Assembly: GCA_963735115.1 (NCBI GenBank)
Contig: CAVTJR010000003.1
Location: forward strand, 1,528,884 to 1,592,883
Reading direction: 5' to 3'
Length of the DNA: 64,000 bases
Source: an uncultured Actinomycetota bacterium
Lineage (GTDB): Bacteria; Actinomycetota; Acidimicrobiia; Acidimicrobiales; Bog-793
The notes beneath the pieces are model-generated. The model searched no databases, was not told the DNA's origin, and was given only the letters and a program-made list of their open reading frames with translations. Shown one piece after another: positions 11,335-36,282 of the stretch. The first letter of the stretch is position 1. Each line of letters begins with the position of its first letter. A program made the translations under genes and the position numbers.

Positions 11335-11337
11335 TCC

Positions 11338-12219: not shown

Positions 12220-12707
12220 GCACTGAGGGATCCCTCCTCAGCTACACGCTTCGCGTGAACGGCCGCGACCGGCCGGTCAGCGATGCGCTCATCGAAGAGA
12301 ACCTCCTCTACGTCTTGCGGGAGCGGCTCGGCCTTCGCGGGTCGAAGAACGCCTGCGAGCAGGGCGAGTGCGGGGCGTGCTCGGTGATCCTCGACGGCAG
12401 GCTGGAGTGCGCCTGCACGGTGCTCGCCGCCAGCGCCGTCGGTCGAGAGGTCGTCACGGTGGAGGGTCTCACGCCTGACGGCGACGGGCTCTCGGACCTG
12501 CAGGAAGCCTTCCTCGCCGAGGGGGCCGTCCAGTGCGGCTTTTGCACTCCGGGACTTGTCGTGAGCGTGCACGACCTCCTTTCGCGCAACCCTCACCCGA
12601 CCGAACTCGAGATTCGCGAGGCCATCTCCGGCAACCTCTGCCGCTGCACCGGCTACGGCCGCATACTTGCGGCTGTGAAGGTGGCCGAGGAGATGCACCA
12701 GCCATGA
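12207..12707 (+). CDS. pucE: Xanthine dehydrogenase [2Fe-2S] subunit
   Basis: KNACEQGECGACSV, QCGFCTPG, GNLCRCTGY. Confidence 0.92.
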   Translation: MEQLSTEGSLLSYTLRVNGRDRPVSDALIEENLLYVLRERLGLRGSKNACEQGECGACSVILDGRLECACTVLAASAVGREVVTVEGLTPDGDGLSDLQEAFLAEGAVQCGFCTPGLVVSVHDLLSRNPHPTELEIREAISGNLCRCTGYGRILAAVKVAEEMHQP

Positions 12708-16065: not shown

Positions 16066-16231
16066 GAGAACAGGGCTGGTCCCGAGCCGCCACCAGCCGG
16101 GCACCGGTGATGGCGCGCCGCGACCTCCCAGGCCTCGGTGCCGTCGGCCGGGGGTGCGAGGTTCGTCGCGACAGGCTGGCGAGCGCTGTGTCTACCCTGG
16201 ACAGGGCAGTCCGGCGTGAGAAGGGGAGACC

Positions 16232-17891: not shown

Positions 17892-17895
17892 GGGG

Positions 17896-20499
17896 TCATT
17901 CCTCGGACGAACCGGCTGAGGCGGCCACCGCCCGTCGCATGGGAAGCGTGTCCCTCCATTCGCCGTCGAGATCGTGCAACGCAGTCGCCACGGCTCCCGC
18001 CGTCGGGACGAGGCCGATCTCCCCCATCCCCTTGATGCCATACGGGCTTCGCGGCTGAGGCACCTCGACGAGGACCGCTTCGATGGGCGGGACATCCTTC
18101 GCTCGCAGGATGCCAAGACCCCGGAGCGTCATGTGCGTCGGGCGTCCGTCCTCGTCGGCAGGGAACTCCTCCGACAAGGCGTACCCGAGCCCCATGTGAA
18201 CGGCACCCTCGATCTGCCCTTCGCAGAGCATCGGGTTGACGGCGCGGCCGACGTCGTGAACGGCCACCACCTTCTCGATCTGGCTCGTCTCGCGATCGAT
18301 CGTCACGAGCTGGGCGGCATAGGAGAAGGCCGAGTGGATGATCGGGTTCTCCACCCCCTCGTCGAGAGAGTTCGTCCAGTCGACGCGGTACTCGCCCTCG
18401 TAGTCGACGCCCGGCTTGCATCCGTCCTCGATCGCCCGCTGGCAGGCGGCCGCGATGGCGCCCGCCCCCATCAGCGTGCCGCGGGAGCCGGTCGTCTGGC
18501 CTGCTCCGAGCTCGCGGGTCGTGTCCACGACGACCCGAACCCGCCCGGGGTCCAAGCCGAGCTCCTCGACGGCAACCTGCTGCGCGACGGTGTGGATTCC
18601 CTGTCCCATCTCCGTCCAGCAGTGGCGTACCTCGACGTCGCCGCTCTCGTCGAAACGCACGACTGCCCGCACGATCTCGAGGAACCCGTTGCCGAGGCCG
18701 GAGTTCTTCAGCCCGAGGCCGAGGCCGACGGCCTTGCCGGCCGCCACGGCGGCGTCGTAGGCAGGCTCGACGGCATCGAGGCAGGCGAGGGCGCCGAGGC
18801 AGCCGTCGTCCATCACCTGCCCCGGCCCCCAGACACATCCCGGACGGATGGCGTTGCGGCGGCGCATCTCGAGACCCGAGATTCCCACCTTCTCGGCCAA
18901 GCGGTCCATGACGCCTTCCATGGCGAACTGGGCCTGATTCGCACCAAAACCGCGGAAGGCGCCGCACACGGGGTTGTTCGTCCGCACCGCCAGGGCCTCG
19001 ACGTCGATCGCCGGCAGCACGTACGGGCCGGAGGCATGGCCGGCCGCCCTCTCGAGCACCTTCATGCCGACGGAGGCGTACGGCCCGGAATCGCCGATCA
19101 TGCGCGCCTTCAATGCGGTCAGCATCCCGTCGGCATCGCAGCCTGCCCAGTACTCGAGGCGGATCGGGTGACGCTTGGGATGGAGGAGGAAGGACTCCTC
19201 ACGCGACAACGTGCATTTCACCGGTCGCCCGAGCAGGAAGGCCGCCAGAGCAGTCTGCGCCTGGTTCGACATGTCCTCTTTCCCGCCAAAGGCTCCGCCG
19301 TTCGAGACCAGCTCGACGACGACCTGGGTTTCGGGGACGGCCAGGACGGAGGCGATCTGGTCGCGGTCGTCCCAAACCCCCTGCCCACCGGAATAGACCG
19401 TCAAGGTGCCGTCAGCTTGTGGCACGGCAAGGGTCGACTCGGGCTCGAGGAAGGCGTGCTCCACGCGCTGGGTCTGGAACACCTCGTGCAGGCGATGCTC
19501 CGAAGCGGCCAAGGCGGCCTCCACGTCGCCCCGCTGATAGGCGGAGCGGGAGAGGACGTTGCCGTCGAGCTCCCAGACGGCGTCCTCCGGGTCGTCGATC
19601 GCCGCCACGGCGTCGGTGAGCGCTCGCAGCGGCCGGTATTCGACATCGACGAGCTTGGCTGCCTCACGCGCCTCTGCGAGCGAGCGAGCGACGACGATGG
19701 CGAGGACGTCGCCGAGATAGGCGGTGCGCCCGCCCTCCGGGATGAAGACGGGCCAGTCGGTGTAGATGATGCCGACTCGGAGCTTGCCCGGTACGTCGGC
19801 TGCGGTGAACACGGCCTCCACGCCCGGCGCCGCCAGCGCCGGGCCGGTGTCGATGCGAACGATGTCGGCTCGGGCGTGGTCGGCCAGCCGGAGCGCCCCA
19901 TGGAGCATGCCGGGGACGCGCAGGTCGTCCACGTAGGCGCGATCCCCGAGAGCGAGCTGCAGGCTCTCGTACTTCGGGCTGCGAGCGCCTATGCCGTGCT
20001 TCGTGCCGTTCGTACCGTTCGTACCGTCGCCCGCCGCAACGAGAGGGGCCCTCCCGCTGGCGAGGAGCTCGACGGCGTCGAGGATCTTCGTGTAGCCCGT
20101 GCAGCGGCACAGGTGGGCACCGAGGTGGCGGGCGGCGTCCTCTCGGGTCAGCTCCGAGCCCTTCTTGTCGAGCAGCGCCTTCACGCGCACGACGATCCCC
20201 GGCGTGCAGAACCCGCACTGCAGGGCACCCGTGGCGGAGAAGGCGTTGGCGAAGCGCGCCCGCTCGTCCTCATCGAAACCCTCCAGCGTCGTGACGGACT
20301 TGCCGGCGACACGGGCGAGAGAGGTGCTGCAGCTGATCATTGCTTTGCCGTCGATGAGCACCGTGCAGCACCCGCACTGCCCCGACGGCGAGCAGCCATC
20401 CTTCGGCGAGGTGATGTCCAGCTCCTCGCGGAGGGCTGCCAGGAGATTGGGGTGCTCGCCGACCTCGACCAACTTGCCGTTCAACGTGAACTCGGTCAT
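17896..20499 (-). CDS. Fused [2Fe-2S]-molybdopterin hydroxylase (XdhD / Se-dependent xanthine dehydrogenase-like)
   Basis: N-terminal KDGCSPSGQCGCC, QCGFC, HLCRCTGY; then EHAFLEPES, GGAFGGKED, AFRGFG, EMGQG, TTGSRGT, KGMGEIG. Confidence 0.9.
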   Translation of the reverse strand: MTEFTLNGKLVEVGEHPNLLAALREELDITSPKDGCSPSGQCGCCTVLIDGKAMISCSTSLARVAGKSVTTLEGFDEDERARFANAFSATGALQCGFCTPGIVVRVKALLDKKGSELTREDAARHLGAHLCRCTGYTKILDAVELLASGRAPLVAAGDGTNGTNGTKHGIGARSPKYESLQLALGDRAYVDDLRVPGMLHGALRLADHARADIVRIDTGPALAAPGVEAVFTAADVPGKLRVGIIYTDWPVFIPEGGRTAYLGDVLAIVVARSLAEAREAAKLVDVEYRPLRALTDAVAAIDDPEDAVWELDGNVLSRSAYQRGDVEAALAASEHRLHEVFQTQRVEHAFLEPESTLAVPQADGTLTVYSGGQGVWDDRDQIASVLAVPETQVVVELVSNGGAFGGKEDMSNQAQTALAAFLLGRPVKCTLSREESFLLHPKRHPIRLEYWAGCDADGMLTALKARMIGDSGPYASVGMKVLERAAGHASGPYVLPAIDVEALAVRTNNPVCGAFRGFGANQAQFAMEGVMDRLAEKVGISGLEMRRRNAIRPGCVWGPGQVMDDGCLGALACLDAVEPAYDAAVAAGKAVGLGLGLKNSGLGNGFLEIVRAVVRFDESGDVEVRHCWTEMGQGIHTVAQQVAVEELGLDPGRVRVVVDTTRELGAGQTTGSRGTLMGAGAIAAACQRAIEDGCKPGVDYEGEYRVDWTNSLDEGVENPIIHSAFSYAAQLVTIDRETSQIEKVVAVHDVGRAVNPMLCEGQIEGAVHMGLGYALSEEFPADEDGRPTHMTLRGLGILRAKDVPPIEAVLVEVPQPRSPYGIKGMGEIGLVPTAGAVATALHDLDGEWRDTLPMRRAVAASAGSSEE

Positions 20500-20598
20500 G
20501 GCTCCATTCTCCCACTGCCCTGATCGGCGGCGCGCCCCACCTGGCCGGCGCCGAGAAGTGCCTCGTTCCATGATCGCTCGGCCGTGGGCGCCTAGGTA

Positions 20599-20766: not shown

Positions 20767-21996
20767 ATGCCGCCGGAGGGCTCGCAGTCTCGATGGGCGC
20801 AGCGACGCACGAGCTGGGAGCGCTTCCTCCTCAGCTGGTTCGCCCTCCCCGGGTCGCTGCTGGCGGCACTCCTCCTCGGCGCCCTCATGATGGCCGTGCT
20901 CGGCGCCAACCCGCTCACGGGTTACCACGCCCTCTTCGACGGTGCCTTCGTGGGCAGCTACGCCCTCGGCGCTACCGCCGTGAGGGCTGCTCCGCTCCTT
21001 CTCGTCGGGGTCGGAATCTGCATCTCGTTTCGCGCCAGCATGCTCAACATCGGCGGCGAGGGCCAGCTGGCGATGGGCGGCCTCGCCTGCGCGGCGACCG
21101 CCCTCGCCCTCCCGAACCTGCCGAGCATCGTGCTCATCCCCCTCGTGCTCCTCGCCGGCGCGGCCGGCGGGGCCATCTGGGGCGCCATCCCGGGCGCCTT
21201 CAAGGCCTATTTCAACGTCAACGAGATTCTCAGCACGATCATGCTCAACCTCGTCGCCGTGCAGATCATGAACTACCTCTTGGCGGGCCCCATGGTTGAC
21301 AACACCCAGAACTCGACCTATGGCCTCATCCCGGAGACACGGCTCCTCTCCTCCCACTCCTGGCTGCCGATTCTCATCCCCGGAACCCAGCTCCATCTCG
21401 GCGTCGTCATCGCTGTCGTCGTTGCCGGGGGTGCCTACGTGCTGCTTTTTCACACCGGCGTGGGGTTCCGGCTGCGCGCCGTCGGGATCTCGCGCGAAGC
21501 CGCCAATTACGCCGGCATCAAGGTGAAGCGGACGATGGTGTTGGCAATGACCCTCAGCGGGGCGATGTGCGGTCTCGGGGGGGCGATGCTCGTCATCGGG
21601 AGCATCTCGCACAGGATGGTGACCGACGGGAGCCTCACCGGCTTCACCGGCTCTGACGGCTTCAACGGCATCGTCGTGGCTCTCTTCGGCGGGCTCAGCC
21701 CCCTCTGGAGTGTCGTCTCTGCCTTCCTCTTCGGAGGGCTGCTCACCGGCGGCGACGCTCTCCAGGTGGCCACGGGCGTGCCGGCCGACATGGTGACGGC
21801 CCTCGAAGGCCTCGTCGTGGTGTTCGTCGTATCGCTCGAGTACATGAGGCGCCGGGCCCGCACGGCCGCCTTGGCCCCGCCGGTGACGCCCTCGCGCTCA
21901 TCGCGGGCAAAAGACGATGTCCCTCCGCTCGTCGGGGTGGGACGGGCCCCAGGGCTCGGCTCGCACGAGGCCTCCAGGACGGGAGCGTCACCGTGA
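20767..21996 (+). CDS. Nucleoside/purine ABC transporter permease (CUT2, BMP-associated)
   Basis: NIGGEGQ, NEILSTIMLN, GFRLRAVG...AANYAGI, GFNGIVVALFG; multiple hydrophobic helices. Confidence 0.9.
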   Translation: MPPEGSQSRWAQRRTSWERFLLSWFALPGSLLAALLLGALMMAVLGANPLTGYHALFDGAFVGSYALGATAVRAAPLLLVGVGICISFRASMLNIGGEGQLAMGGLACAATALALPNLPSIVLIPLVLLAGAAGGAIWGAIPGAFKAYFNVNEILSTIMLNLVAVQIMNYLLAGPMVDNTQNSTYGLIPETRLLSSHSWLPILIPGTQLHLGVVIAVVVAGGAYVLLFHTGVGFRLRAVGISREAANYAGIKVKRTMVLAMTLSGAMCGLGGAMLVIGSISHRMVTDGSLTGFTGSDGFNGIVVALFGGLSPLWSVVSAFLFGGLLTGGDALQVATGVPADMVTALEGLVVVFVVSLEYMRRRARTAALAPPVTPSRSSRAKDDVPPLVGVGRAPGLGSHEASRTGASP

Positions 21997-22925
21997 GCCA
22001 CTTCTTCACCTACGCCGTCCTCACCTCCACGGTGGCCGCCGCCATCGCCCTCGCCAGCCCGTTCCTGCTGGCCTCCCTCGGCGAGACGATGGGCCAGCGA
22101 AGCGGCGTCATCAACCTCGGTGTCGACGGGATCATGCTGCTGTCGGCCTTCTCGACCTACTTCGTGGCCCTCAAGACGGGCAGCCTCCTGTTCGGGGTCC
22201 TCGCCGGCGTCGGGGTCGGGATGGTGATGGGCGTCATCACCGCCTTCATCTCTGTCACCTTGAAAGCCGAACAGGGCATCAGCGGCATCGGGATCTACCT
22301 CTTCGGCCTCGGCTTCAGTGATCTGCTGTTCATCAAGCTCGTGGGCACACCGCTGCCCATCAACGAGCTGACTCCGATCGGCATCCCCCTGCTCGACCGC
22401 ATCCCCGCTGTCGGGAACATGCTGTTCAAGCAGACGATCCTCGTCTACCTGGCCTTCCTGCTCGTCCCCGTGTTCGCCTTCGTGCTGAACCGCACGACCT
22501 ACGGCCTCAAGATCCGCGCCTGCGGGGAGAACCCGGCCGCCGCCGACACCGTCGGCATCAGCGTGGCGCGCATCCGTTGGTCGACCGTGCTCATCGGCTG
22601 CACGATGGCGGGTCTGGCGGGCGCCGCCTTGCTCCTCTACGACGGGATCTTCATGGAGAACCTCACGCAGAGCGAGGGGTTCATCGCCGTGGCGCTCGTG
22701 TACTTCGGTGCCTGGCGCCCCCTCGGCGTCATGGGCGGCTCCGTCCTCTACGGGTTCACGATCGCCGTCGTCCTCGAGTGGAAGTCGCTCGGCATCATCC
22801 CGCTCAGCGCCTCCGATCTCGCCGCCACGGCTCCGGCCGTCATCACGATCCTGGCCTTGTTGCTGGTGGCTCGCCGCTTCCGGCAGCCCGCCGTCCTCGG
22901 CAAGCCCTACGAGAGAGGAGGTTGA
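21993..22925 (+). CDS. Nucleoside/purine ABC transporter permease 2
   Basis: SGVINLGVDG, GLKIRACGENPAAADTVGISV, GFIAVALVYFGAWRP, LGKPYER. Confidence 0.9.
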   Translation: MSHFFTYAVLTSTVAAAIALASPFLLASLGETMGQRSGVINLGVDGIMLLSAFSTYFVALKTGSLLFGVLAGVGVGMVMGVITAFISVTLKAEQGISGIGIYLFGLGFSDLLFIKLVGTPLPINELTPIGIPLLDRIPAVGNMLFKQTILVYLAFLLVPVFAFVLNRTTYGLKIRACGENPAAADTVGISVARIRWSTVLIGCTMAGLAGAALLLYDGIFMENLTQSEGFIAVALVYFGAWRPLGVMGGSVLYGFTIAVVLEWKSLGIIPLSASDLAATAPAVITILALLLVARRFRQPAVLGKPYERGG

Positions 22926-23027
22926 TGCCCCCCGCACGTGTCTTCCCATCTACTCGGGGCCGGCCGCCCCTGCGGTCGCCCACCTCGACACATTCAGTTC
23001 AGTCCGAACCCTAAGAAAGGAATGACA

Positions 23028-24047
23028 ATGCATGCACATCTGACCAAGAAGGTCGGCGTGCTGCTCGTCGCAATCGGTGTGGCCCTCGGCCTGGCCGCCT
23101 GCGGGAGCACCGCCTCGACCAGCACGACCACCACCAAAGCCTCTTCATCTGCGCCAAAGGTGTTCAAGGTGGCTCTGATCGCTCCGAGTGCCACCAACGA
23201 CCTGGCGTTCACGGAGTCGATGTACAACGCCCTCGAGGGCCTCAAGACGACTGAGAACCTGCAAATCTCGGTCTCGGCCAACGAATTCATCGTGGCAGAC
23301 GCCGCCAACATCATCCGCGAGTACGCCTCGGAGGGGTACAACCTCGTGATCGCGCACGGATCCCAGTACGGCTCGACAATCGAGCAGCTGGCTCCGCAGT
23401 TCCCGAAGGTGTCGTTCGCCTGGGGCACGGCCGGCTCGACGTTCGGCTTGCCGAACGTCTTTGCCTACGAGGCCAGCTCGAACGAAGGCGGCTACGTGCA
23501 GGGGTACATGGCAGCGCTGTTGAGCAAGTCGCACGTGCTCGGAGTCATCGGGCCGATCGCGACGGGCGATGCCAAGCTGTACGTTGACGGCTTCGTCGCC
23601 GGGGCCAAAGCGGCCGATCCGACGATCACCGACCACCCCGTGTACACGGGCTCCTTCAGTGACGACAGCCTGATGGCCACGGCCGCCAAGACGTTCGTCT
23701 CCGACGGTGCTGATGTCCTCACGGGCAGCTCGCAGTCGGTCGTGGGAGCCATCGGTGTCGCTCGCGCTGACCACCTCCCCTGGTTCAGCACGCAGTGGAG
23801 CCAGGCGACCCTGGCGCCGAGCAACGTCGTGTCGGCGCAGGTCTACAACTGGACGCCCGTCCTCACCCAGATGATCACGGAGATCCGTTCGGGCAAGCTC
23901 GGCGACGCCACGTACGTCATCGGGCTCGGCAACGGCGGTGAGCAGATCGTCTTCAACCCGGGCTACAAGCTCCCGGCATCGGTGAAGGCCAAGGCGCAGA
24001 AGCTCATCACCGACATCACCAACGGGTCCCTCACGGTTCCTCAGTGA
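23028..24047 (+). CDS. BMP family (PnrA/Med-like) purine nucleoside-binding lipoprotein
   Basis: Signal peptide with lipobox LAAC, Thr/Ser linker, GYNLVIAHGSQY, EGGYVQGYMAA; AAAGGA RBS. Confidence 0.88.
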   Translation: MHAHLTKKVGVLLVAIGVALGLAACGSTASTSTTTTKASSSAPKVFKVALIAPSATNDLAFTESMYNALEGLKTTENLQISVSANEFIVADAANIIREYASEGYNLVIAHGSQYGSTIEQLAPQFPKVSFAWGTAGSTFGLPNVFAYEASSNEGGYVQGYMAALLSKSHVLGVIGPIATGDAKLYVDGFVAGAKAADPTITDHPVYTGSFSDDSLMATAAKTFVSDGADVLTGSSQSVVGAIGVARADHLPWFSTQWSQATLAPSNVVSAQVYNWTPVLTQMITEIRSGKLGDATYVIGLGNGGEQIVFNPGYKLPASVKAKAQKLITDITNGSLTVPQ

Positions 24048-25696
24048 TCGCAGGAAGCGACGGTACGGAGGCCACAGTGGCAACCACGAGCAACAGCCCT
24101 ACGGCTACCGCTACCGCGACCGCCCATCCGGAGGAGGCAGTACCGCTCCTCCGGATGAGCAGCATCACCAAGCGCTTCCCCGGCGTGCTCGCCAACGACG
24201 ACGTGGACTTCGATGTCCGAGCCGGCGAGGTCCACACGCTCTTCGGAGAGAACGGCGCCGGCAAGAGCACGCTCATGCGCATCCTCTACGGCCTCTACCG
24301 CCCCGACTCGGGCGAGATCCGCGTCCACGGCGAGGCCGTCCAGATCTCCTCGCCGGCCGCCGCCATCCGCCATGGCATCGGCATGATCCACCAGCACTTC
24401 ATGCTCGTGAACACCTTGACCGTGGTCGAGAACGTCGCCCTCGGGCTGAAATCGTCCCGCGGTCCGCTCACGGACCTCGGCAAGGTCTCGGTACGCCTCG
24501 AGGAGCTCGCCGAGCGGCACGGGCTCGAGGTCGACCCTCATGCCCTTATCTGGCAGCTCTCGGTCGGCGAGCGCCAGCGCGTCGAGATCCTGAAGGCGCT
24601 CTACCGCGACGTCGGTCTCCTCGTCCTCGACGAGCCGACTGCCGTGCTCACCCCGAACGAGGTCGACGATCTCTTCCGGGTCCTCCGCCAGCTTGCCGCG
24701 AGCGGACGAGGGCTCGTGTTCATCTCCCACAAGGTGAACGAAGTGCTCGAGATCTCCGACCGCATCACCGTCCTTCGCGCCGGCAAGCGCATCGGCACGG
24801 TCTCCAGGGCGGAAGCCTCACAAAGCCGGCTCGTCGAGATGATGGTGGGGCACGACCTGTCCGCCGATGTGCGACCGACGGCCGCCGCTGCAGGCGAGAG
24901 ACGTCTCGTCGTGCGCGACCTCACGGTGAAGGGAGACCGCGGGCAGGACGCCGTACGCGGGCTCGATCTCGAAGTCGACGCCGGCGAGATCGTCGGGATC
25001 GCCGGAGTGTCAGGCAACGGCCAGCGTGAGTTCGCCGAGTCGGTCGCCGGCATTCGTGCCCCTACGAGCGGCTCGATCCTCCTCGGCGGGAGCGAGGTAG
25101 CCGGCGCCCCGCCTGCCCAGGTGCGGGCTGCCGGGCTTGCTTATGTCCCCGAGGAGCGCATGCGCGACGGCATCGTTGCAGATTTCACCGTCGCCGAGAA
25201 CCTCATGCTCGTGGACAACAACAAGCCGAGCTTCTCCCGGCTCGGGTTTCTCCGCAGCCGCGTGATCAAGCGACACTGCCAGGAGCTCGTCGACGCCTTC
25301 GACGTGAGAACGCCGAGTCTCGACACGCCGGCACGCAACCTCTCCGGTGGCAACATTCAAAAGCTCATCATGGCCCGGGAGCTATCCGGCCAACCTCGCC
25401 TGCTGCTCGTCGCCCAACCGACGCGGGGGATCGACGTCAGTGCCGCCCAGTACATCCACCGGCGGCTCGTCGAACAGCGCGACGCCGGTACGGCCGTGCT
25501 CATCATCTCCGAGGATCTCGACGAGGTGATGTCGATCTCCGATCGCATCCTCGTGATGTACGAGGGCCGGATCATCGGCTCCGCCGACCCGCGCACGAGT
25601 ACGCGTGAAGCCATCGGCCTCATGATGGCCGGCATCGAAGCCGAGCAGTCGGAGGAGGCTGCGGCCGCTGTCGAGCCGGTGAGCGTCGATCGCTGA
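24044..25696 (+). CDS. ABC transporter ATP-binding protein, double ATPase domain
   Basis: GENGAGKST, LSVGERQRVEI, LDEPT, GVSGNGQ, LSGGNIQK, AQPTRGID. Start uncertain. Confidence 0.93.
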   Translation: MIAGSDGTEATVATTSNSPTATATATAHPEEAVPLLRMSSITKRFPGVLANDDVDFDVRAGEVHTLFGENGAGKSTLMRILYGLYRPDSGEIRVHGEAVQISSPAAAIRHGIGMIHQHFMLVNTLTVVENVALGLKSSRGPLTDLGKVSVRLEELAERHGLEVDPHALIWQLSVGERQRVEILKALYRDVGLLVLDEPTAVLTPNEVDDLFRVLRQLAASGRGLVFISHKVNEVLEISDRITVLRAGKRIGTVSRAEASQSRLVEMMVGHDLSADVRPTAAAAGERRLVVRDLTVKGDRGQDAVRGLDLEVDAGEIVGIAGVSGNGQREFAESVAGIRAPTSGSILLGGSEVAGAPPAQVRAAGLAYVPEERMRDGIVADFTVAENLMLVDNNKPSFSRLGFLRSRVIKRHCQELVDAFDVRTPSLDTPARNLSGGNIQKLIMARELSGQPRLLLVAQPTRGIDVSAAQYIHRRLVEQRDAGTAVLIISEDLDEVMSISDRILVMYEGRIIGSADPRTSTREAIGLMMAGIEAEQSEEAAAAVEPVSVDR

Positions 25697-25909: not shown

Positions 25910-26863
25910 TCAGCCCGGCACGAAACGCGTGCCCGTCTCGCCTGCGAGGGCCCTCTCGACGTTGGCGGGATCGGTCACGATGGCTTCCGTGCCACCCGCG
26001 TCGAGGTAATTGAGGACGGCCTGGATCTTCGGCGCCATGCTGCCGGCGGCAAAGTGGGTACCCTCCGCCAGGTACGCCCTCGCCTCGGATGCGGTCAAGC
26101 GGTCCACGAAACGCTGCTCCGGTCGTCCGAAGCTGAGCGCCACCTGCTCGACCGCCGTCGAGATGAGGAGGAGGTCGGCGCCAAGGTTGGTGGCCAGCAG
26201 CGCCGAAGCGAGGTCCTTGTCGATGACGGCCGCGACCCCCTCGAGATCGCCGTCCTCTTTGCAGACAACCGGAATGCCGCCCCCGCCGGCGGTGACCACG
26301 ACGATGCCGGCCTCGACGAGCGTGCGGATGGCAGGCATCTCGACGATCCGCACCGGAGTGGGAGAGGCGACGACGCGGCGCCAACCGCGGTTGGCATCTT
26401 CGATGAGCTCCCAGCCCTGCTGCCGTCGGCGCTCTGCCATCGCCTCGTCCATGAACGACCCGATCGGCTTGCTCGGATGGCTGAAGGCAGGGTCGTCGGC
26501 TCTCACCTCCACCTGGCAGATGACGGTGGCTGCGTTGCGATCCATGCCGAAGCGGCGGAACTCGTTGCAGAGGTTCTGCTGCAGGGCATATCCGATGGCA
26601 CCTTGCGTGTCGGCCCCGCACACGTCGAGGGGAACCTCGTGCAGCTCGCTCGCCGCCAGCTCGGAACGTCGCAGGATGAAGCCGACCTGGGGCCCGTTGC
26701 CGTGGGCGATGACGACGTTCCAGCCGGCGCGGATCATCCCGACGATGTGGTGGCAGGTTTCTTTGGCGGCGATGTACTGATCTTGCACCGATTCGTGCTG
26801 CTTGTCCTTGATGAGTGAGTTGCCACCGATGGCGACGACGGCCGTGCGGCTCGCTGTGTCCAT
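25910..26863 (-). CDS. arcC: Carbamate kinase (ArcC/YqeA)
   Basis: VVAIGGNSL, HGNGPQVG, ADTQGAIGY, KPIGSF, WRRVVASP, GGGGIPV, AVIDKD, GSMAPK. Confidence 0.96.
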   Translation of the reverse strand: MDTASRTAVVAIGGNSLIKDKQHESVQDQYIAAKETCHHIVGMIRAGWNVVIAHGNGPQVGFILRRSELAASELHEVPLDVCGADTQGAIGYALQQNLCNEFRRFGMDRNAATVICQVEVRADDPAFSHPSKPIGSFMDEAMAERRRQQGWELIEDANRGWRRVVASPTPVRIVEMPAIRTLVEAGIVVVTAGGGGIPVVCKEDGDLEGVAAVIDKDLASALLATNLGADLLLISTAVEQVALSFGRPEQRFVDRLTASEARAYLAEGTHFAAGSMAPKIQAVLNYLDAGGTEAIVTDPANVERALAGETGTRFVPG

Positions 26864-26866
26864 GGG

Positions 26867-27844
26867 TCAGCTCATCGTGAGCGCCATCACTGCCTTCTGG
26901 CCGTGGAGGCGGTTCTCGGCTTGGTCGTAGACGATGGACTGCGGCCCGTCGATGACCTCGTCGGTCACCTCGACGTTGCGATCGGCAGGCAGCGGGTGCA
27001 TGAAGACGGCATCTTCGTTGGCCGTCTTCATGTGGCGGGCGTCTGTCATCCACGAGTGGTACTGGTTGATGAGACGTGTGTCTTCGGCCTCGTCGGGTGT
27101 GGTCACCATGGCACCCCAGCTCTTGGCGTAGACGACGTCGGTGCCGACGAAACCCGCCTCGAAGTCGTCCATGAGCTCGAACCCGGCGTGCCCGATGCGA
27201 GCGTTCTCCCTCGCCTGCTCGACGATCTCGGGCATGAGTGAGAACTCGGGTGGGTGCACGAGGCGAACGTTCATGCCGAAGCGGGGCAGCAGGAGCACGA
27301 GGCTCTGGGCGACGCTGACGGGCTTCAAGTAGGAGGGGTCGTGCGCCCAGGAGATCGTGGCGGTCTTGCCTCGCGGGTCGCCGAAGCGCTCGATGATCGT
27401 CATGAGGTCGCCGAGCGCCTGATGGGGGTGGTAGACGTCGCATTGCATGTTGAGGACCGGAACCCTGCTCGCCTCGGCGACGTCGCGCAGGTACTGGTTC
27501 CCCACGCCGAAGTCACAGTGGCGGATGGCGATGCCGTCGTTGTAGCGGCCGAGGATCTCGCCGATCTCCTTCGGAGTGTCCCCGTGGGCGATCTGGGTAG
27601 TACGGCTCTCGATGAACTGGGCGTGGCCGCCGAGCTGGGCCATGCCGGCTTCGAAGGAGGCCCGCGTGCGCGTGCTCGAGAAGAAGAAGAGCATGGCGAG
27701 GACCTTGTCGCGAAGGAGCGGGTGGCCGATGCCGAGGGCGCGCTCGCGCTTCAAGTGGAAGGCGATGTCGAGCAGCGTGTCGACTTCGTCCTTCGTCCAC
27801 TCCTGCAGGTCGATGAGGTCGCGTCCGCGAAGGTGTGTCTGCAT
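26867..27844 (-). CDS. YgeW-like (ornithine/knotted-type) carbamoyltransferase
   Basis: SSTRTRASFE, HPHQ, SWAHDPSYLKPVSVAQSL (resembles YgeW WAYSPSYGKPLSVPQ), YAKSW, HPLPADR, QAENR. Confidence 0.8.
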   Translation of the reverse strand: MQTHLRGRDLIDLQEWTKDEVDTLLDIAFHLKRERALGIGHPLLRDKVLAMLFFFSSTRTRASFEAGMAQLGGHAQFIESRTTQIAHGDTPKEIGEILGRYNDGIAIRHCDFGVGNQYLRDVAEASRVPVLNMQCDVYHPHQALGDLMTIIERFGDPRGKTATISWAHDPSYLKPVSVAQSLVLLLPRFGMNVRLVHPPEFSLMPEIVEQARENARIGHAGFELMDDFEAGFVGTDVVYAKSWGAMVTTPDEAEDTRLINQYHSWMTDARHMKTANEDAVFMHPLPADRNVEVTDEVIDGPQSIVYDQAENRLHGQKAVMALTMS

Positions 27845-27848
27845 CGGT

Positions 27849-28802
27849 TTACTCCATTGCTCCCAGCACGAGGGACAGAAGGGACATGCGCATGACGACG
27901 CCGTTGAAGGCCTCCACCCAGTAGCGGGCGTGCCGCGTGCTGTCGACGTCCGGCGGCAGCTCGTCCATGCGGGGGAGGGAGTGGAGGATGATGGCGTCGG
28001 ACTTCGCCTTCGCCGCCAGCAGCTCTCGGGTGACGCGGTAGGCCGCCGGCGTGCCGCCGCGCTCCCCGCTCGCTTCCACCCGCGACTGGGTGTAGTCGGC
28101 CTGCACGACCGGCTCCATGTAGATCACGTCGGCGTCGGCGATGCAGGCCTCGACGCTCTCGGCCTCGCGGTATTGCACGCTGCGCTCGTCGAGCTCCGAC
28201 TTGAACTCGTCAGTGAGCGACATGTCCTCCGGCGAGACGACGAAACCCTCGAGGTCGAACTGCGACATCGCATACAGGATCGAGTGCATCGTCCGCATCC
28301 TCATGTCCCCGACGAGCAACATTTTCAAGCCGTCAAGGCCACCGCGTGCCTGCCAGATCGTGTAGAGGTCGGTGAGCACTTGCGTCGGGTGCTCACCCCA
28401 GCCGTCGCCGCAGTTGATCACCGGGACCGACGCCCAGCGGGCGGCCTCCTCCGGCGCCCCCTGCTGGAAGTGGCGCATGGCGATGACGTCGCCGTAGTAC
28501 TCCAGCATGTGGACGGTGTCCTTGATGGACTCCTGGTAGAAGTCGCCGGCTCGCGTCATCTTGGCATCGGAGAAACCGAGCACATGGCCGCCGAGCCGGT
28601 GCATGGCCGCCTCCGTCGCCAGCCGAGTGCGGGTGCTCGGCTGGTAGAAGGCCGTCAGCAGCGTCTTGTGCTTGAGGAGATCCCCGTTCCGCCGTTCCGC
28701 CGCGTACGGTCGCAAGCGGTCCGCCACCCGGAAAATCTGGAAGAACTCCTCACGCTCCATGTCTTTGAGGGACAGAATGTCCCGACCGAGAAAACTTCGC
28801 AT
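27849..28802 (-). CDS. Aspartate carbamoyltransferase-like protein (second transcarbamylase)
   Basis: PSTRTRL, ESIKDT, MRHF, INCGDGWGEHPTQVLTDLYTI, VGDMRMRTMHS, HSLPRMDEL. Confidence 0.85.
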   Translation of the reverse strand: MRSFLGRDILSLKDMEREEFFQIFRVADRLRPYAAERRNGDLLKHKTLLTAFYQPSTRTRLATEAAMHRLGGHVLGFSDAKMTRAGDFYQESIKDTVHMLEYYGDVIAMRHFQQGAPEEAARWASVPVINCGDGWGEHPTQVLTDLYTIWQARGGLDGLKMLLVGDMRMRTMHSILYAMSQFDLEGFVVSPEDMSLTDEFKSELDERSVQYREAESVEACIADADVIYMEPVVQADYTQSRVEASGERGGTPAAYRVTRELLAAKAKSDAIILHSLPRMDELPPDVDSTRHARYWVEAFNGVVMRMSLLSLVLGAME

Positions 28803-28935: not shown

Positions 28936-30654
28936 GTGGCTCGGCACGGGCAAGCAGCGAGGTCGCTGTGGGTTCGGGGCGCCACCATCATCGACGGCAC
29001 GAACGCCGCCCCCATCACGGGCGACGTCGTCGTCGACGACCGCGGTGTCATCGCCGCCGTCGGACCGCCGTTGCGGCAGGCACCTTTCGAGGTGGCCTCG
29101 ACGGTGGACGGGTCCGGTTACGTGCTGTCGCCCGGTTTCGTCGACCTTCACTCCCACTCCGACCTTTACACGCTGTTTCGCGACGCGCCCGGCAACCCGC
29201 CCATCGGTGACTCGCCGAAGCTCGTGCAGGGCTGCACGGCCCAGGTCTTCGGCCAGGACGGCATCTCGGCCGCTCCCGTCTCCGAGGACGACCTCGGCGA
29301 TCACGTCGCTTTCCTCGCCGGCCTCGACGGCACGATCCCGCCCGAGTCCTGGACGTGGCGCTCCTTCGGCGAGTACCGCCAGGCGGTGACCGCCAGCTCG
29401 ACGACGCGCACCGCTCTCCTCGTCGGGCATGCCACGATCCGGCGGCTCGTCATGGGCGACGTCGCGCGTGAGGCGACAGCAGCCGACATCGAGGCCATGC
29501 AGCAGGCGCTCGCCACCGCCCTCGACGAGGGTGGGCGAGGCTTCTCCACCGGCCTCGTCTACGTTCCGGCCGCCTACGCGACGACAGACGAAGTGGCCGC
29601 CCTCTGCGAGGTCGTGGCGGCCCGCCAGGTGCCCTTCTTCGTGCATGTGCGCTCGGAGAGCGACCGCGTCGTCGAAGCCACCGACGAGGTGCTCGAGATC
29701 GCCGCTCGCACCGGCTGCCATCTCCACTACAGCCACATCAAAGCTGCCGGGCGGGAGAACTGGCACAAGGCCTCCGTGCTGATCGACCGCATGGCGGCGG
29801 CCCGCGAGGCGGGCGTGCACATCTCGGCGGACGTCCACCCCTATATCGCCGGCTCGACGTCTGCCATCGTCTTGCTCCCACCCTGGGTGCAGGACGGCGG
29901 CCACGAGGCGGCGATCGCACGCCTCTCCGAACCGGCCATCCGCGCCAAGCTCCGCCTGCAGCTGCTCGAGGACACGACCTCGTGGGACAACTGGTGGCGG
30001 TTCTCCGACGGCTGGAGCGGGCTCAAGGTGGCGCGGTCGCGACGGCCGGAGCTCGTCGGGCGCTCCTTCGCCGAGGTCATCTCCTCGGCCGGCGTGAGCG
30101 ACCTCGCCTCCCAGGAGGCATTCGACGCCATCTTCGACCTGCTGGCGGACGAGAACCTCGGCATGTCCCTCGTCTCGTTCAACAACGTCGAGGAGAACGT
30201 CGCCCGTTTCATGGGCCAGCCCTACACCTCGATCGGCACCGACGCCGTCGTCGACCACGGTGGGCACCCGCACCCCCGCCTGCACGGGACCTTTCCCCGC
30301 GTGCTCGGCCGTTTCGTGCGTGAGCTCGGAGCGCTCTCGCTCGAGGAAGCCGTCCGCAAGGTGACCTCGCAGGCCGCAAGCGTCGTCGGCTGGGGCGGTG
30401 TGCTCGGTGAGCTCCGGCCCGGACTGCCGGCCGATCTCGTCCTGTTCGATGCCGACGTCATCGCCGACCGGGCGACCTTCGAGTCGCCGTGGGAGTACCC
30501 CGTCGGAATCGAAGGCGTCTGGGTCGGAGGGTTCCGGGTCGTGCAGCAGGGAGACCTCGCCCCGGAGGCCGACGTCGTCGCCGGTGACCCGCGTGCGGCG
30601 GAGTCAGACGGCGCCGGTCAGCGCCCTTCGACGACGGGCGAGCGGGCAACGTAA
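28936..30654 (+). CDS. N-acyl-D-amino-acid deacylase family amidohydrolase
   Basis: PGFVDLHSHSD, GQDG, GFSTGLVY, HVRSE, SHIK, IGTDA, HPRLHGTFPR; GGAAGGA RBS before GTG 28936. Confidence 0.9.
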   Translation: MARHGQAARSLWVRGATIIDGTNAAPITGDVVVDDRGVIAAVGPPLRQAPFEVASTVDGSGYVLSPGFVDLHSHSDLYTLFRDAPGNPPIGDSPKLVQGCTAQVFGQDGISAAPVSEDDLGDHVAFLAGLDGTIPPESWTWRSFGEYRQAVTASSTTRTALLVGHATIRRLVMGDVAREATAADIEAMQQALATALDEGGRGFSTGLVYVPAAYATTDEVAALCEVVAARQVPFFVHVRSESDRVVEATDEVLEIAARTGCHLHYSHIKAAGRENWHKASVLIDRMAAAREAGVHISADVHPYIAGSTSAIVLLPPWVQDGGHEAAIARLSEPAIRAKLRLQLLEDTTSWDNWWRFSDGWSGLKVARSRRPELVGRSFAEVISSAGVSDLASQEAFDAIFDLLADENLGMSLVSFNNVEENVARFMGQPYTSIGTDAVVDHGGHPHPRLHGTFPRVLGRFVRELGALSLEEAVRKVTSQAASVVGWGGVLGELRPGLPADLVLFDADVIADRATFESPWEYPVGIEGVWVGGFRVVQQGDLAPEADVVAGDPRAAESDGAGQRPSTTGERAT

Positions 30655-32000
30655 CGGCCCCAACCGGCTTCGCCCGTGAAGCTGCCGTCTCTCGCCACGA
30701 CGCGCCCTCGGCTCAAGACGAGGGCAGGCCAGCCGACGACCACGCGGCCGGCGTAGGGCGAATGGTCGACAGCCATGTGCAAGTCGGCTGCCTCGAGCGA
30801 CTGGCGGCGATCCGGATCCCAGATGACGACGTCCGCATCGGCGCCCACGGCGAGTGAGCCCTTCTGCGGCCACAGCCCGAAGGTCTTCGCCGGCGCCTCG
30901 GCACAGAGCCGCACCCAATCCCCCACCGTGATGCGGCCCACCCGGACGCCTTCCCACACGAGGGCGAGGCGGGTTTCGATGCCGGGAAGGCCACCGGGGA
31001 TGTCCGTGAAGTCGGCCGCCCCCCCGGGTCGGCCTGCCACACCGGCGCGGCGGTCGGCGCGGGTGAAGGGGCAGTGGTCGGTGGCAACCGTATCGATGTA
31101 GCCCTGCGCCAGTCCCTCCCAGAGCTCCTCGGAGTGCCACGGCTGGCGTAGCGGAGGCGTGCACACGTAGTCGGCCCCGTCGGGCCCCTCCAACCGTGAG
31201 GTGTCGAGGTAGAGGTACTGCGGACAGGTCTCGGCGCGGACGTTCACGCCTCGGTCGCGGGCGGCTCGCACTGCCGCCAGCGCCGGAGCGGAGGAGACGT
31301 GAACGATGAAGATCGACGCCCCCGTCACCTCCGCCAGCGCACAGGCCCGGCCGACGGCTTCGGCCTCGAGCACGGCCGGGCGCGTCAGGGCGTGCTCGAT
31401 GACGGCCGTTCGCCCGGCCGCGAGCGCCTGGTGGCGCAGCTCCTCGACGGCACCGCCGTTTTCGCAGTGCAGTGTGACGAGGGAACCGTTCCGCCGGGCA
31501 GCCTGCATGAGACGCAGCACGGTGCCGTCGTCCACCTGCAGCCGCTCCGGGTACGCCAGGTAGAGCTTGAACGACGTGATGCCCGCTTCGACACCAGCGG
31601 CCACGACGGCCTCCGGCACGGCTTCGGTGAACGTGAGATGCAGGCCCCAGTCGATGGCGGACGGCTCCGCCCACGCCCGCCAGATCGCCACGGTCGCCAT
31701 CGGGTCGTCACCGCGTTGCACCGTGACGTAGTCAACGATGGTGGTGGTCCCGCCCACGGCGGCGGCCCGCGTGCCGCTCGCGAAGTCGTCCGACACGCGC
31801 ACGGCACCCACCGGCATGTTGAGGTGCGTGTGGGCGTCGACGCCACCCGGCGTGACGAGCTTGCCCGTGGCGTCGTGCACCTCCTCTCCAGGCAGCGGCG
31901 TGAGACGACCCACCTCGGCGATGCGACCGTCGGCGGCGACGCGAACATCTCCTCTTCGCTCGCCGGCCGCGTCCACCACCGTGCCGTCGCGGATCAGCAT
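30618..32000 (-). CDS. hydA: Dihydropyrimidinase / D-hydantoinase (HyuA-like)
   Basis: PGGVDAHTH, GGTTTIVD, SFKLYLAY (carboxylated Lys), HCENG, VHVS, ETCPQYL, ATDHCPF, PGGLPGIETR. Confidence 0.92.
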   Translation of the reverse strand: MLIRDGTVVDAAGERRGDVRVAADGRIAEVGRLTPLPGEEVHDATGKLVTPGGVDAHTHLNMPVGAVRVSDDFASGTRAAAVGGTTTIVDYVTVQRGDDPMATVAIWRAWAEPSAIDWGLHLTFTEAVPEAVVAAGVEAGITSFKLYLAYPERLQVDDGTVLRLMQAARRNGSLVTLHCENGGAVEELRHQALAAGRTAVIEHALTRPAVLEAEAVGRACALAEVTGASIFIVHVSSAPALAAVRAARDRGVNVRAETCPQYLYLDTSRLEGPDGADYVCTPPLRQPWHSEELWEGLAQGYIDTVATDHCPFTRADRRAGVAGRPGGAADFTDIPGGLPGIETRLALVWEGVRVGRITVGDWVRLCAEAPAKTFGLWPQKGSLAVGADADVVIWDPDRRQSLEAADLHMAVDHSPYAGRVVVGWPALVLSRGRVVARDGSFTGEAGWGRYVARSPVVEGR

Positions 32001-32105
32001 GCCGCCGGACCCGGCCGTCTCGCCTGCACCGCCCGGAAGCGGGCCGCCGCGGGCCACGGGCGGCGCGCTGGCATACGAAGAGGTCTCACGACCACGATCC
32101 GCTGC

Positions 32106-33407
32106 TCAGGGCCAGAGCCGGCGCGCCCGACGGGCGAGCTCGCCCCGGGCGGCGGCGAGCTCGAGACCTACGAGCTCCCCGTCGCTGACGACGAGCTCAC
32201 CGCCCACGAGGAGATGGCGCACACGCCGGTCCGGGCCGAGCACGAGGCCGGCGATCGGGTCGGGCACGTCGCCGAGGTCGTCGCCCGGCCAGATGGCGAT
32301 GTCGGCCGGCGACCCGGGCTCCAAGCGACCGAGCTCGCCTCGGCCGAGGCACCGTGCCCCGCCGGAGGTCGCCAGCCCGAGCGCTTCTGCCGGCGAGAAG
32401 GCGCTGGCGTGACCATCTCGTAACCTCGCCAGGTAGAGGGCTTGCCGCATCTCGGGCTGCAGAACGCCGGCCTCGTTCGATGCGGCGCCGTCGACACCGA
32501 GGCCGACGGGGGCGCCGGCGTCGACGAGCTGGCGGACCGGGCAGATACCCGAACCCAGACGGCCGTTCGAGCTCGGGCAGTGGGCGACGCCGGCGCCGGC
32601 AGCACCGAGGCGGGCGACCTCGCTCGGATCGAGGTGGATGGCATGGGCGAACCAGACGTCGGGGCCGAGCCAGCCGAGGCCCTCGACGTAGTCGAGCGGC
32701 CGGCAGCCGAAGCGCGCCAGGCTGTCGCGTTCCTCGTCCAACGTCTCTGCGAGGTGCGTGTGCAGGCGGAGCCCGAGCCTGCGGGCGAGATCGGCTGACT
32801 CGACCATCAGCTCCTTGCTCGTCGAGAAGGGACTGCAAGGGGCGACGACCACACTCACCCGGCTGCCGTCGTGCAGTCGCGCCGCTACGGCCTCGGTGGA
32901 GGCGAGGATGACCTCGACGTCCTCGACGATGTCGTCCGGCGGCAGCCCTCCAGCGCTCTCCCCGAGGTCCATGGAACCGCGAGAGAGGTGGAGGCGGACA
33001 CCGACGGTGCGGGCGGCAGAGGCGATGGCGTCGAAAACGCTGTCGTCACCGTGGGGGACGACGTAGTGATGGTCGGCCACCGTCGTGGCGCCGCTGCGAG
33101 CGAGCTCGGCCAGGCCGACAAGGGCAGCGGCGCCGACGTCGTCGCTCGACAGCTGGTTCCAGACGGGGTAGAGCTCCTGCAGCCATCCGAAGAGGTCGCA
33201 GCTCGTGGCACGCCCCCGCGTCATCCACTGGTAGAGGTGATGGTGCGTGTTGACGAGCCCGGCCGTCACGATGTCGCCGTCGCAGCGCAGCTCCCGGTCG
33301 CCCGGTCTCGCTTCGACAGAACCGATCTCGGTGATGAGCCCGTCCTCGACAGCGACGTCTGCGGGGAAGCGGGCGCCCCGCAGCACGAGGCGCGATTCCG
33401 TTGACAT
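32106..33407 (-). CDS. 8-oxoguanine deaminase / AtzB-like amidohydrolase
   Basis: GLVNTHHHLYQWMTRG, DHHY, APCSPFS, HTHLAET, HCPSSNGRLGSG, GVDGAASNE. Confidence 0.88.
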   Translation of the reverse strand: MSTESRLVLRGARFPADVAVEDGLITEIGSVEARPGDRELRCDGDIVTAGLVNTHHHLYQWMTRGRATSCDLFGWLQELYPVWNQLSSDDVGAAALVGLAELARSGATTVADHHYVVPHGDDSVFDAIASAARTVGVRLHLSRGSMDLGESAGGLPPDDIVEDVEVILASTEAVAARLHDGSRVSVVVAPCSPFSTSKELMVESADLARRLGLRLHTHLAETLDEERDSLARFGCRPLDYVEGLGWLGPDVWFAHAIHLDPSEVARLGAAGAGVAHCPSSNGRLGSGICPVRQLVDAGAPVGLGVDGAASNEAGVLQPEMRQALYLARLRDGHASAFSPAEALGLATSGGARCLGRGELGRLEPGSPADIAIWPGDDLGDVPDPIAGLVLGPDRRVRHLLVGGELVVSDGELVGLELAAARGELARRARRLWP

Positions 33408-33427
33408 GTGGACCTCCGGGTGCTCGA

Positions 33428-34779
33428 TCATCGACGGCCCCCCGTGAAGAGCACGGCGACGCTCTCGCCCGGCCCGACGACGCCCTGCTCACGCAAGGCC
33501 ACGAGACCGGCGAGTCCGGCTGACCCGGTCGGGTCGACCTGGATGCCCGTTGTTTCGAGGGCGAGGGCATTCGCCTTCTCCAGCTCTTCCTCGCCGACTA
33601 CGACGGGCCGACCCCCGGTGACGAGCATCGCCTCGACGACGGCCAACCAGTCGTAGGTTTCGTCGTCGAGAATGCCGTGGGCGATGCTGTGCGGCGTCGT
33701 CTCCCAAGGCCACATGAACTCGGACCGGTGCTGGGCGGCCTGGCGGAGAGCCCGGTGGATCGGGTCAGGACCGCTCTGGCCGTCAAGGAGGGCCGCCACG
33801 CGGTCGAAGGCGCGCTTGAGCGGCCAAGCGCTCTCGGTCTGGACGGTGTGGAAGCGCGGGGGGCGCTCGAGGAGACCGAAGGTGACCGCTTCGCCGAAGG
33901 CGGCGGCGACAGCGCTGGCGAGTGCCCCTCCACCGACCTGGACGACGACGTGATCGAGAGGAGCTCCGGTGGCCGCCAGGTGGGCCACGATCTCGTAGCC
34001 GAGCGTCTGGCCGCCTTCGATGGCGAGGCCGTTCTCGTTGCCCTGGCAGGTGAACGGCAGAGCTCCTTCAGCGATGGCCGCCCGCATGCGGTGGTAGGTG
34101 GGATCGCCGTTCACTCCGGCTTGGCGGGCGCACACGGTGATGCGAGCCCCGAGGGAGGAGAGCCGCGCGACGACGGCCGGGTCGGCGTCGGTGGGCACGA
34201 ACACGAGCAGCTGCCGCCCGCCTGCCGCCGCCACGACCGCCGCAGCCAAGGCGGCGTTCCCGCAGCTGGCGATCGCCAGCGGGCGTCGCTCGCTCGCATC
34301 GATCAGGCCAAGCTGTTCGGCCACCTCGAGGTGGAGGAGCAAGCCGAAGAGGTGGCGTCCCTTGTGAGAGCGGGCGACATTGTGGGTCTCGTCCTTCACG
34401 AACACGGGACCGAGGACACCAGCACCTTCACCGAGACGCCCCTCGAAGGTCAGCGGCGTCGTGACGAACCCGCTGCCGTCGACGTCTGCCACGGCGGCGT
34501 CGAGCCGCCGCACGAGAGCGACGAACTGCCCGTCGCCGAGACCGCCGGCGACGGCGAGGTGCTGGGCGTGCAGCAGCGATCGGAACCGCACGAACGGGTT
34601 CTGCTCGCCCTCGTCGCCCGCAGGGAAGGTGACGGCGTCCGCATCGAGCACCCTGCGAAGGACGTGGTCGACACCATCGCCGGCGCGCGGGCAGGAGAAC
34701 GGGTATGGCTCGAACGGCTCGAGGACCGTACCGCACCCGCGGCAGACCATCAGGCTCGGCAAGGGCGTGTGCCGCAGGT

Positions 34780-34783
<4 letters not shown>
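33428..34783 (-). CDS. Fold-type II PLP enzyme, threonine synthase-like, with N-terminal Cys motif
   Basis: CRGC...[15 protein letters not shown] (PLP Lys), [40 protein letters not shown]. Confidence 0.85.

Positions 34784-36282
<1,499 letters not shown>

Follow-up and report, generated by a model that had tools for sequence, protein, structure and literature searches.

In the reductive (2,8-dioxopurine) pathway of urate degradation, HyuA yields 2,3-diureidopropionate, YgeW phosphorolyses one of its ureido groups, YqeA, which stimulated YgeW, makes ATP, YgeY hydrolyses the remaining ureido group and YgeX deaminates diaminopropionate (bioRxiv 10.1101/2025.04.24.650524). Two studies published in 2025 disagree about which ureido group leaves first (PMC12990295). 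In C. difficile, the D-aminoacylase homologue UacY replaces YgeW and YqeA, and an F420 variant of the pathway was pointed out in Chloroflexota by Li et al. (PMC12507026). The present work concerns a 64,000-nucleotide stretch (the window) of contig CAVTJR010000003.1 from an uncultured member of the Acidimicrobiales (Actinomycetota; genome G000), in which a transcarbamylase with the fold of aspartate transcarbamylase (ATCase), here TC1, is encoded together with a short YgeW-type transcarbamylase (TC2) and a carbamate kinase (CK). Our analysis suggests that TC1 probably performs a second phosphorolysis and so takes the place of YgeY.

The locus shares with the YgeW-YqeA-YgeY-YgeX module of E. coli and Clostridium (PMC12507026; bioRxiv 10.1101/2025.04.24.650524) a YgeW-type enzyme, a carbamate kinase and homologues of SsnA, HyuA and the molybdoenzyme. 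In contrast to that module, it has neither YgeY nor YgeX, and it carries a second transcarbamylase of the ATCase fold, two pyridoxal phosphate (PLP) enzymes, a short form of YgeW and an F420-type reductase instead of YgfK.

ATCase paralogues lacking the typical motifs (pseudo-ATCases) were described by Barba et al. in 2013, and the one assayed is the allantoate-cleaving UGTCase (PMC4016543). This enzyme, Rxyl_2847 of Rubrobacter xylanophilus, is one of the nearest known parallels to TC1, being a pseudo-ATCase with an H(T/S)LP motif that phosphorolyses a di-ureido purine catabolite beside a carbamate kinase; it differs in belonging to an oxidative route with uricase and allantoinase, in lacking a YgeW partner and in its 240s loop (PMC4016543). 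Another pseudo-ATCase, from Nocardioides sp. JS614 (subgroup 2), adjoins a ygeW homologue, xdhABC and hyuA, and was left without an assigned function (PMC4016543). Judged by its published description, it has the layout of the TC1 locus, with STRT, HPTQ and HSLP and no RxQ, and a Nocardioides metagenome-assembled genome (MAG; L070) with a JS614-like layout carries a TC1 that is 79% identical. The pairing of such a pseudo-ATCase with ygeW has been in print, without a function, since 2013. With HSLP and V-Q-A (V-Q-P in 5 of 19 aligned TC1 rows), TC1 is nearer to row "3" (HSLP, VXP) than to row "2" (GX[SC]) of Table 1 of Barba et al., whose labels may, in our opinion, be permuted against the figure (PMC4016543). 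Finally, DPTCase of zwittermicin and viomycin biosynthesis transfers a carbamoyl group between L-2,3-diaminopropionate and beta-ureidoalanine (albizziin), which would be the chemistry of TC1 if albizziin were its substrate; unlike TC1, which has HSLP and falls in the ATCase branch, DPTCase is anabolic, belongs to the ornithine transcarbamylase (OTCase) branch and has HDLP and (T/S)RWQTTG (PMC4581275).

Two transcarbamylases and their residues

TC1, TC2 and CK are three intact open reading frames on the minus strand, separated by 4 bp (TC1/TC2) and 3 bp (TC2/CK), in agreement with the initial annotation. The uninterrupted order TC1-TC2-CK recurs in 17 of 35 loci from the class of the window and in 33 of 80 loci from GTDB (the best 80 of at least 580 TC1 relatives), so the gene order is not due to chance. 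The absence of arcA, pyrC and carAB from the vicinity was likewise upheld: tblastn with the genome's own arcA, carA, carB and pyrR gave no match in the window, and its pyrC gave just two weak matches, to the dihydropyrimidinase (29%) and to 65 residues of the D-aminoacylase described below.

TC1 passes the ATCase model TIGR00670 (248.1 bits, cut-off 236.95) and fails NF002032 (217.7 against 263 bits). Its predicted structure has the ATCase fold (mean pLDDT 85), with the P. abyssi ATCase 1ml4 as best match (TMq 0.87, 41% identity). In ATCases, RxQxxER is the motif of the 240s loop, and R167, R229 and Q231 form the aspartate site (PMC4581275). In the numbering of E. coli PyrB, TC1 keeps the carbamoyl-phosphate site S52-T53-R54-T55, R105, H134 and Q137, invariant in 19 of 19 TC1 rows, together with R167 (R170 in TC1), and the sequences STRT, HPTQ, GDMRMRTMHS and YMEPVVQ are all present as first reported. 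The RxQxxER motif is absent, with E-P-V-V-Q-A-D in its place: T228 is replaced by E230, R229 by P231, R234 by D236 and P266 by S275 in all 19 rows, Q231 is replaced by V233 (V or I in all rows), and HSLP stands for the ATCase HP[LG]P. As we take R229 and Q231 to bind the beta-carboxylate of aspartate and R167 the alpha-carboxylate, the beta-carboxylate site is gone, which bears out the suspected divergence of the acceptor region. The acidic residues in its place would suit a substrate with a free amine.

The TC1 family is tight: two full-length representatives of 50% clusters are 78–84% identical and the next matches reach at most 49%. Close relatives come from Acidimicrobiales MAGs, and databases label the relatives as aspartate carbamoyltransferase. 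In a quick IQ-TREE fallback tree, which contained no N-acetylornithine transcarbamylase (AOTCase) or UGTCase reference and in which the genome's own PyrB and ArgF formed long branches, the TC1 rows grouped together as a clade (SH-aLRT 91), surrounded by other paralogues without RxQ and separate from the canonical PyrB rows. Many further ATCase paralogues have unrelated 240s loops (e.g., P0131, P0132, P0135, P0140 and P0143 among P0128-P0258), which suggests additional transcarbamylase specificities.

TC2 had been described as YgeW-like. Its active-site residues and its position in the same tree, with the long YgeW and away from OTCases, agree with this, but it is shorter and lies far below the cut-off of the YgeW model (164.8 against 500 bits); it passes no model, the best being OTCase (260.7 against 306). 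With 325 aa, TC2 is about 70 aa shorter than YgeW (about 396 aa), being devoid of the extra N- and C-terminal helices and the long 240s loop of YgeW and retaining the proline-rich loop. The YgeW acceptor residues Q98, Q160, S200, K203, K270, D334 and E344 correspond to Q84, Q134, S171, K174, K241, D288 and E292 of TC2 and are kept in 10–11 of 11 rows (D334 as D or E), while the alignment of D124 is ambiguous. As a guide to the trefoil knot of YgeW, the model of TC2 (pLDDT 93) is equivocal: its lowest root-mean-square deviation is to the AOTCase 3kzk (2.0 A, TMq 0.91), yet an OTCase comes first when matches are ordered by E-value.

At 91.7% completeness (4.42 Mb, 3 contigs), the genome encodes five transcarbamylases: TC1, TC2, pyrB (C2), arcB (C1) and argF (C3). 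The initial annotation had allowed for TC1 being the only pyrB; this is ruled out by a separate housekeeping pyrB, which has RIQKER, passes both ATCase models and sits in a pyrR-pyrB-pyrC-carAB operon on C2. An arginine deiminase pathway is also ruled out for the trio, the arcA-arcB pair being on C1 and not at the locus. That pair lies in a permease-arcA-arcB group without arcC (G000:C1:1347256-1351059, L276) and CK is the only carbamate kinase found in the genome, so CK may also serve arginine fermentation. No YgeY was found in the genome: there are five M20 matches, none on the contig of the cluster, and the best is 26.7% identical and reaches 119 of the 321.5 bits required by the YgeY model.

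Co-occurrence with YgeW, YgeY and a UacY-like hydrolase

TC1 was detected in 36 of 301 genomes from the class of the window, and TC2 in all of these except G266 (35 genomes). YgeY was found in a single genome (G198), which has neither TC1 nor TC2, and in none of the 35 fetched TC1 loci. Thirty-four of the 36 TC1 genomes have TC1 and TC2 with neither YgeY nor the D-aminoacylase. The best 80 GTDB relatives belong to Actinomycetota, Chloroflexota, Planctomycetota, Spirochaetota, Verrucomicrobiota and other groups; TC2 or YgeW is in the locus in 55, a TC2-type gene is elsewhere in the genome in 19, a canonical long YgeW is present in 3 and none was found in 3 (the long-YgeW search covered 5 of the 6 genomes left after the TC2-type search). 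Only 3 of the 50 genomes searched from this set have YgeY above the cut-off. Four planctomycete TC1 genomes carry a long YgeW (three above the cut-off and one at 60%, L085), and no match to YgeY was obtained in these four. Overall, TC1 nearly always accompanies a YgeW-type enzyme: 35 of 36 genomes in the class of the window, 27 of 28 in an Anaerolineae-like class (the class of G359) and 77 of 80 from GTDB.

The Anaerolineae-like class was represented by 151 genomes, with TC1 in 28. Operons of YgeY, TC2 and CK are common there (e.g., L256 and L257), so TC2 fills the slot of YgeW. Of its 75 genomes with a TC2-type gene, 42 have YgeY only, 15 TC1 only, 12 both and 6 neither, whereas independence would predict 19.4 with both and 13.4 with neither. 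The association between TC1 and YgeY is thus negative, and strict exclusivity has to be rejected. The YgeY model TIGR03526 is above its cut-off in 122 of the 151 genomes, seemingly with two subtypes, one of them unlinked to TC2, and the model may therefore lump different functions. In one locus of G386 (L254:8699-13631), a YgeY-family gene is followed by two divergent YgeW/AOTCase-like transcarbamylases (41% and 38% identical to TC2) and a carbamate kinase; this is a different twin-transcarbamylase module. In G416 (L249:11515-12691), the YgeY that adjoins TC1 is split over two frames, through decay or an assembly error.

On the opposite (plus) strand, a gene of the D-aminoacylase family that the initial annotation did not mention begins some 133 bp upstream of TC1; its start (GTG 28936, in a frame open from 28855) was chosen from the preceding GGAAGGA site. 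The product belongs to the same family as C. difficile UacY (PF07969), the likeness being one of family, and likewise appears where TC2 is missing, but differs in coexisting with TC2 here (PMC12507026). Its orthologues (at least 58% identical) were found in only three of the 301 genomes, namely G000, G266 and G198; two further matches at 40–42% lie in 4.5-kb loci that lack the neighbours seen in those genomes. In G266 (95% complete) the hydrolase gene diverges from TC1, which is followed by CK with a 3-bp junction, and there are three transcarbamylases in all (TC1, PyrB and OTCase) and no TC2. In G198 (98% complete) it diverges from YgeY, followed by XdhD, SsnA and LLM genes; this genome has two housekeeping transcarbamylases, and no carbamate kinase was found in it.

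From 80 metagenome matches to the hydrolase we used 31 close loci, leaving out 49 that were less than 40% identical. The neighbours were TC1-TC2-CK in six, TC1 at a contig edge in one, TC1-CK without TC2 in three (L181, L164 and L165, the last two of which appear to belong to a single lineage), YgeY at that position in two (L180 and L189) and TC2 alone in none; the other 19 have no TC1, TC2, CK or YgeY within the available DNA. In relatives, the hydrolase thus pairs with TC1-CK or with YgeY alone, which would give one-ATP and zero-ATP versions of the cluster. These few independent cases suggest that the hydrolase beside TC1 has the role of UacY and stands in for YgeW where TC2 is missing. Since carbamate kinase accompanies TC1 even in the absence of TC2 and was not found in the all-hydrolase genome, TC1 most likely makes carbamoyl phosphate. 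Taken together, the class, GTDB and metagenome counts support the initial view that TC1 is tied to a YgeW-type enzyme and carbamate kinase and is mostly in the position of YgeY.

The proposed second phosphorolysis and its alternatives

From gene content, residues and co-occurrence, we infer the substrates and the ATP yield as follows. The trio would be the lower, ATP-yielding module of an F420-type reductive urate pathway, the upstream enzymes of which, by homology to the pathway of 2025, would lead to 2,3-diureidopropionate. TC2 would phosphorolyse one ureido group, as YgeW does, and TC1 the other in place of YgeY, releasing 2,3-diaminopropionate. Carbamate kinase would convert both carbamoyl phosphates to ATP, pulling two uphill reactions; the need of such phosphorolysis for a kinase pull is documented (PMC4016543) and may explain why a hydrolase is kept alongside in some genomes. 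There would be two slots, the first taken by YgeW, TC2 or the D-aminoacylase and the second by YgeY or TC1, and all four combinations of transferase and hydrolase are seen or published.

With regard to the order of cleavage, the logic of the folds favors that of Liu et al. An AOTCase-like TC2, acting on the side-chain ureido group of an N-alpha-acylated amino acid, would cut the 3-ureido group; an ATCase-like TC1, with its alpha-carboxylate arginine kept and E230 and D236 at the beta-carboxylate site, would then cut the 2-ureido group of 3-amino-2-ureidopropionate. The exchange with the D-aminoacylase points instead to the order of Li et al., with albizziin as the TC1 substrate. We lean only slightly toward 3-amino-2-ureidopropionate. 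The specificity would be new, as had been claimed, only in that case, because carbamoyl transfer with albizziin is known from DPTCase. The claim that both ureido groups are phosphorolysed is still the best reading of gene content, residues and co-occurrence, although TC1 and YgeY are not strictly exclusive. The predicted two ATP hold as an upper bound: the divergent UacY-like hydrolase can presumably bypass TC2, so the yield in this genome may be 1–2 ATP.

Several observations weigh against this proposal. TC1 and YgeY occur together in the 12 genomes mentioned above; in 9 of 29 TC1 loci of the Anaerolineae-like class the two genes are no more than 10 kb apart, with YgeY often directly upstream, and they are equally close in 3 of the 80 GTDB loci. 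Such coexistence means either that a redundant enzyme is tolerated, as the hydrolase is beside TC2 in this window, or that TC1 has a different job and acts on another substrate. The odds ratio of 0.11 between TC1 and YgeY is overstated by the relatedness of the genomes, and the division into TC2-type and YgeY-type lists was made manually, according to model start and score, with 36 lower-scoring YgeY matches absent from the list. The pattern of a hydrolase without TC2 amounts to about two independent events, seen in contigs and in one genome that is 95% complete. Should the D-aminoacylase act on the 2-ureido group, as Li et al. contend for UacY, the group left for TC1 to cut in G266 would be the 3-ureido group, in conflict with the assignment based on folds. 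The equivalent of K84, the lysine of the neighbouring subunit, is lost, with Y89 in its place at the level of alignment only, the loop having a pLDDT below 50. YgeX is missing from the locus and two fold-type II PLP enzymes are in its expected place, one of which might, in principle, release urea from albizziin by elimination, so that no second cleavage would be needed. Finally, selD was not found in G000 (91.7% complete), although it is present in G198 and G266 and the urate reductase of gut bacteria is selenium-dependent; either it is missing from the assembly or the molybdoenzyme is a selenium-free variant.

The most durable alternative, which we consider unlikely though by no means negligible, is that TC1 is a catabolic transcarbamylase for another ureido compound (allantoate, N-carbamoyl-beta-alanine or a side product), the second ureido group of the urate intermediate being lost through repeated action of TC2, through the D-aminoacylase or through PLP-dependent elimination of urea. 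This would explain the 12 genomes with TC1 and YgeY and the 7 loci in which TC1, TC2 and YgeY stand together, and it accords with the action of the only assayed pseudo-ATCase on allantoate and with its H(T/S)LP motif (PMC4016543, PMC4581275), as well as with the two PLP enzymes near TC1 in 55 (the 500-aa one) and 46 of the best 80 GTDB loci. The 500-aa enzyme, however, is also present in 5 of 5 YgeY-type genomes without TC1 and hence does not track the loss of YgeY. The almost exclusive company of YgeW-type enzymes and the 34 class genomes that have both transcarbamylases and neither hydrolase are also difficult to reconcile with another substrate. The allantoate route was rejected, as no uricase or OHCU decarboxylase was found in 5 of 5 TC1 genomes tested, the positive controls being detected.

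It is far less probable that TC1 is a second, ordinary or catabolic, ATCase. The TIGR00670 score, the structural match to the P. abyssi enzyme and the database labels would allow it; R229, Q231, R234, K84 and P266 are lost, NF002032 is failed, the pyr operon has the true pyrB, the quick tree places TC1 apart from the canonical PyrB rows and the context of TC1 is always purine-catabolic. Equally improbable is that TC1 is a non-catalytic partner subunit or regulator of TC2, as near-perfect co-inheritance and tight spacing might suggest, given that its carbamoyl-phosphate residues are all invariant, that it persists beside carbamate kinase in loci without TC2 (G266 and L181) and that TC2 occurs with YgeY and without TC1 in 42 genomes.

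The purine cluster and implications of the second transcarbamylase

By homology, the purine cluster around the trio (Table 1) corresponds to the reductive urate pathway described in 2025, its F420 variant included. The two PLP enzymes are candidates for a new diaminopropionate lyase or racemase.

Table 1. Genes of the trio and of the surrounding purine cluster (positions in the window).
Feature	Position	Strand	Remark
TC1, pseudo-ATCase (ATCase fold, non-RxQ 240s loop, HSLP), 317 aa	27849..28802	-	proposed mono-ureido-diaminopropionate transcarbamylase (YgeY step)
TC2, short YgeW-type transcarbamylase with proline-rich loop, 325 aa	26867..27844	-	proposed 2,3-diureidopropionate phosphorolysis (YgeW step)
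Carbamate kinase YqeA/ArcC (CK), 317 aa	25910..26863	-	NF009007 passed, 390 bits, cut-off 266
D-aminoacylase-family amidohydrolase, UacY-like	28936..30654	+	PF07969; divergent from TC1
Dihydropyrimidinase/hydantoinase, HyuA-like	30618..32057	-	43% to E. coli HyuA; above TIGR02033 cut-off
8-oxoguanine deaminase family	32106..33431	-	above NF006055 cut-off
Fold-type II PLP enzyme, threonine-synthase-like	33428..34783	-	
500-aa fold-type II PLP enzyme, probable YgeX stand-in	34780..36282	-	
Molybdoenzyme, probable urate reductase	17896..20571	-	814.6 bits on Se-dependent xanthine dehydrogenase model, cut-off 830.45
SsnA-like amidohydrolase	16869..18116	-	coordinates of the open frame; true start further downstream
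LLM/F420-type reductase, probable YgfK replacement	15061..16065	+	PMC12507026
BMP-type (nucleoside/purine) ABC transporter, four genes	20767..25696	+	converges on carbamate kinase
Adenine deaminase and three-subunit xanthine dehydrogenase (XdhABC)	9613..15064	+	PucD-type large subunit above cut-off

The ABC transporter lies reversed between CK and the XdhD-like gene, which adjoin in relatives (e.g., L042, L176 and L177), and its placement looks like an insertion or inversion. An isochorismatase-family gene follows the LLM/F420-type reductase at the end of the xdh operon (15061-16792, plus strand), and there is a second ygfM/xdhD-like pair at a great distance from the cluster (G000:C3:722230-726008; 36% identity with XdhD of E. 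coli). Scans for promoters and terminators at the locus found nothing. In one metatranscriptome study (run X1), two near-identical contig pieces span the TC1/TC2 and TC2/CK junctions; carry-over of DNA is possible, and this weak observation was not used as evidence.

No literature assigning a second carbamoyltransferase to the YgeY step was found in a search that left subscription journals mostly uncovered, and the supplements of PMC4016543 and PMC12507026 may mention variants. We tentatively put forward, as a possibility short of an even chance, that TC1 is a widespread catabolic transcarbamylase for (R)-3-amino-2-ureidopropionate, derived from ATCase and undescribed in the literature searched, that together with TC2 it lets bacteria of several phyla in soil, peat and sediment gain twice as much substrate-level ATP from urate, and that all four combinations of transferase and hydrolase are natural.

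With TC1, TC2 and the UacY-like hydrolase, the disagreement of the two 2025 studies over albizziin and 3-amino-2-ureidopropionate could be tested directly. If the proposal is true, the four combinations would be a ready set of enzymes for deciding which ureido group goes first, a question open in 2025. A family with at least 580 GTDB matches, now labelled aspartate carbamoyltransferase, would be given its actual role, in the breakdown of purines. Through substrate-level phosphorylation, the reductive urate pathway would provide as many as two ATP instead of one, and it would be common outside guts, contrary to the suggestion of a recent adaptation to the gut (PMC12990295).

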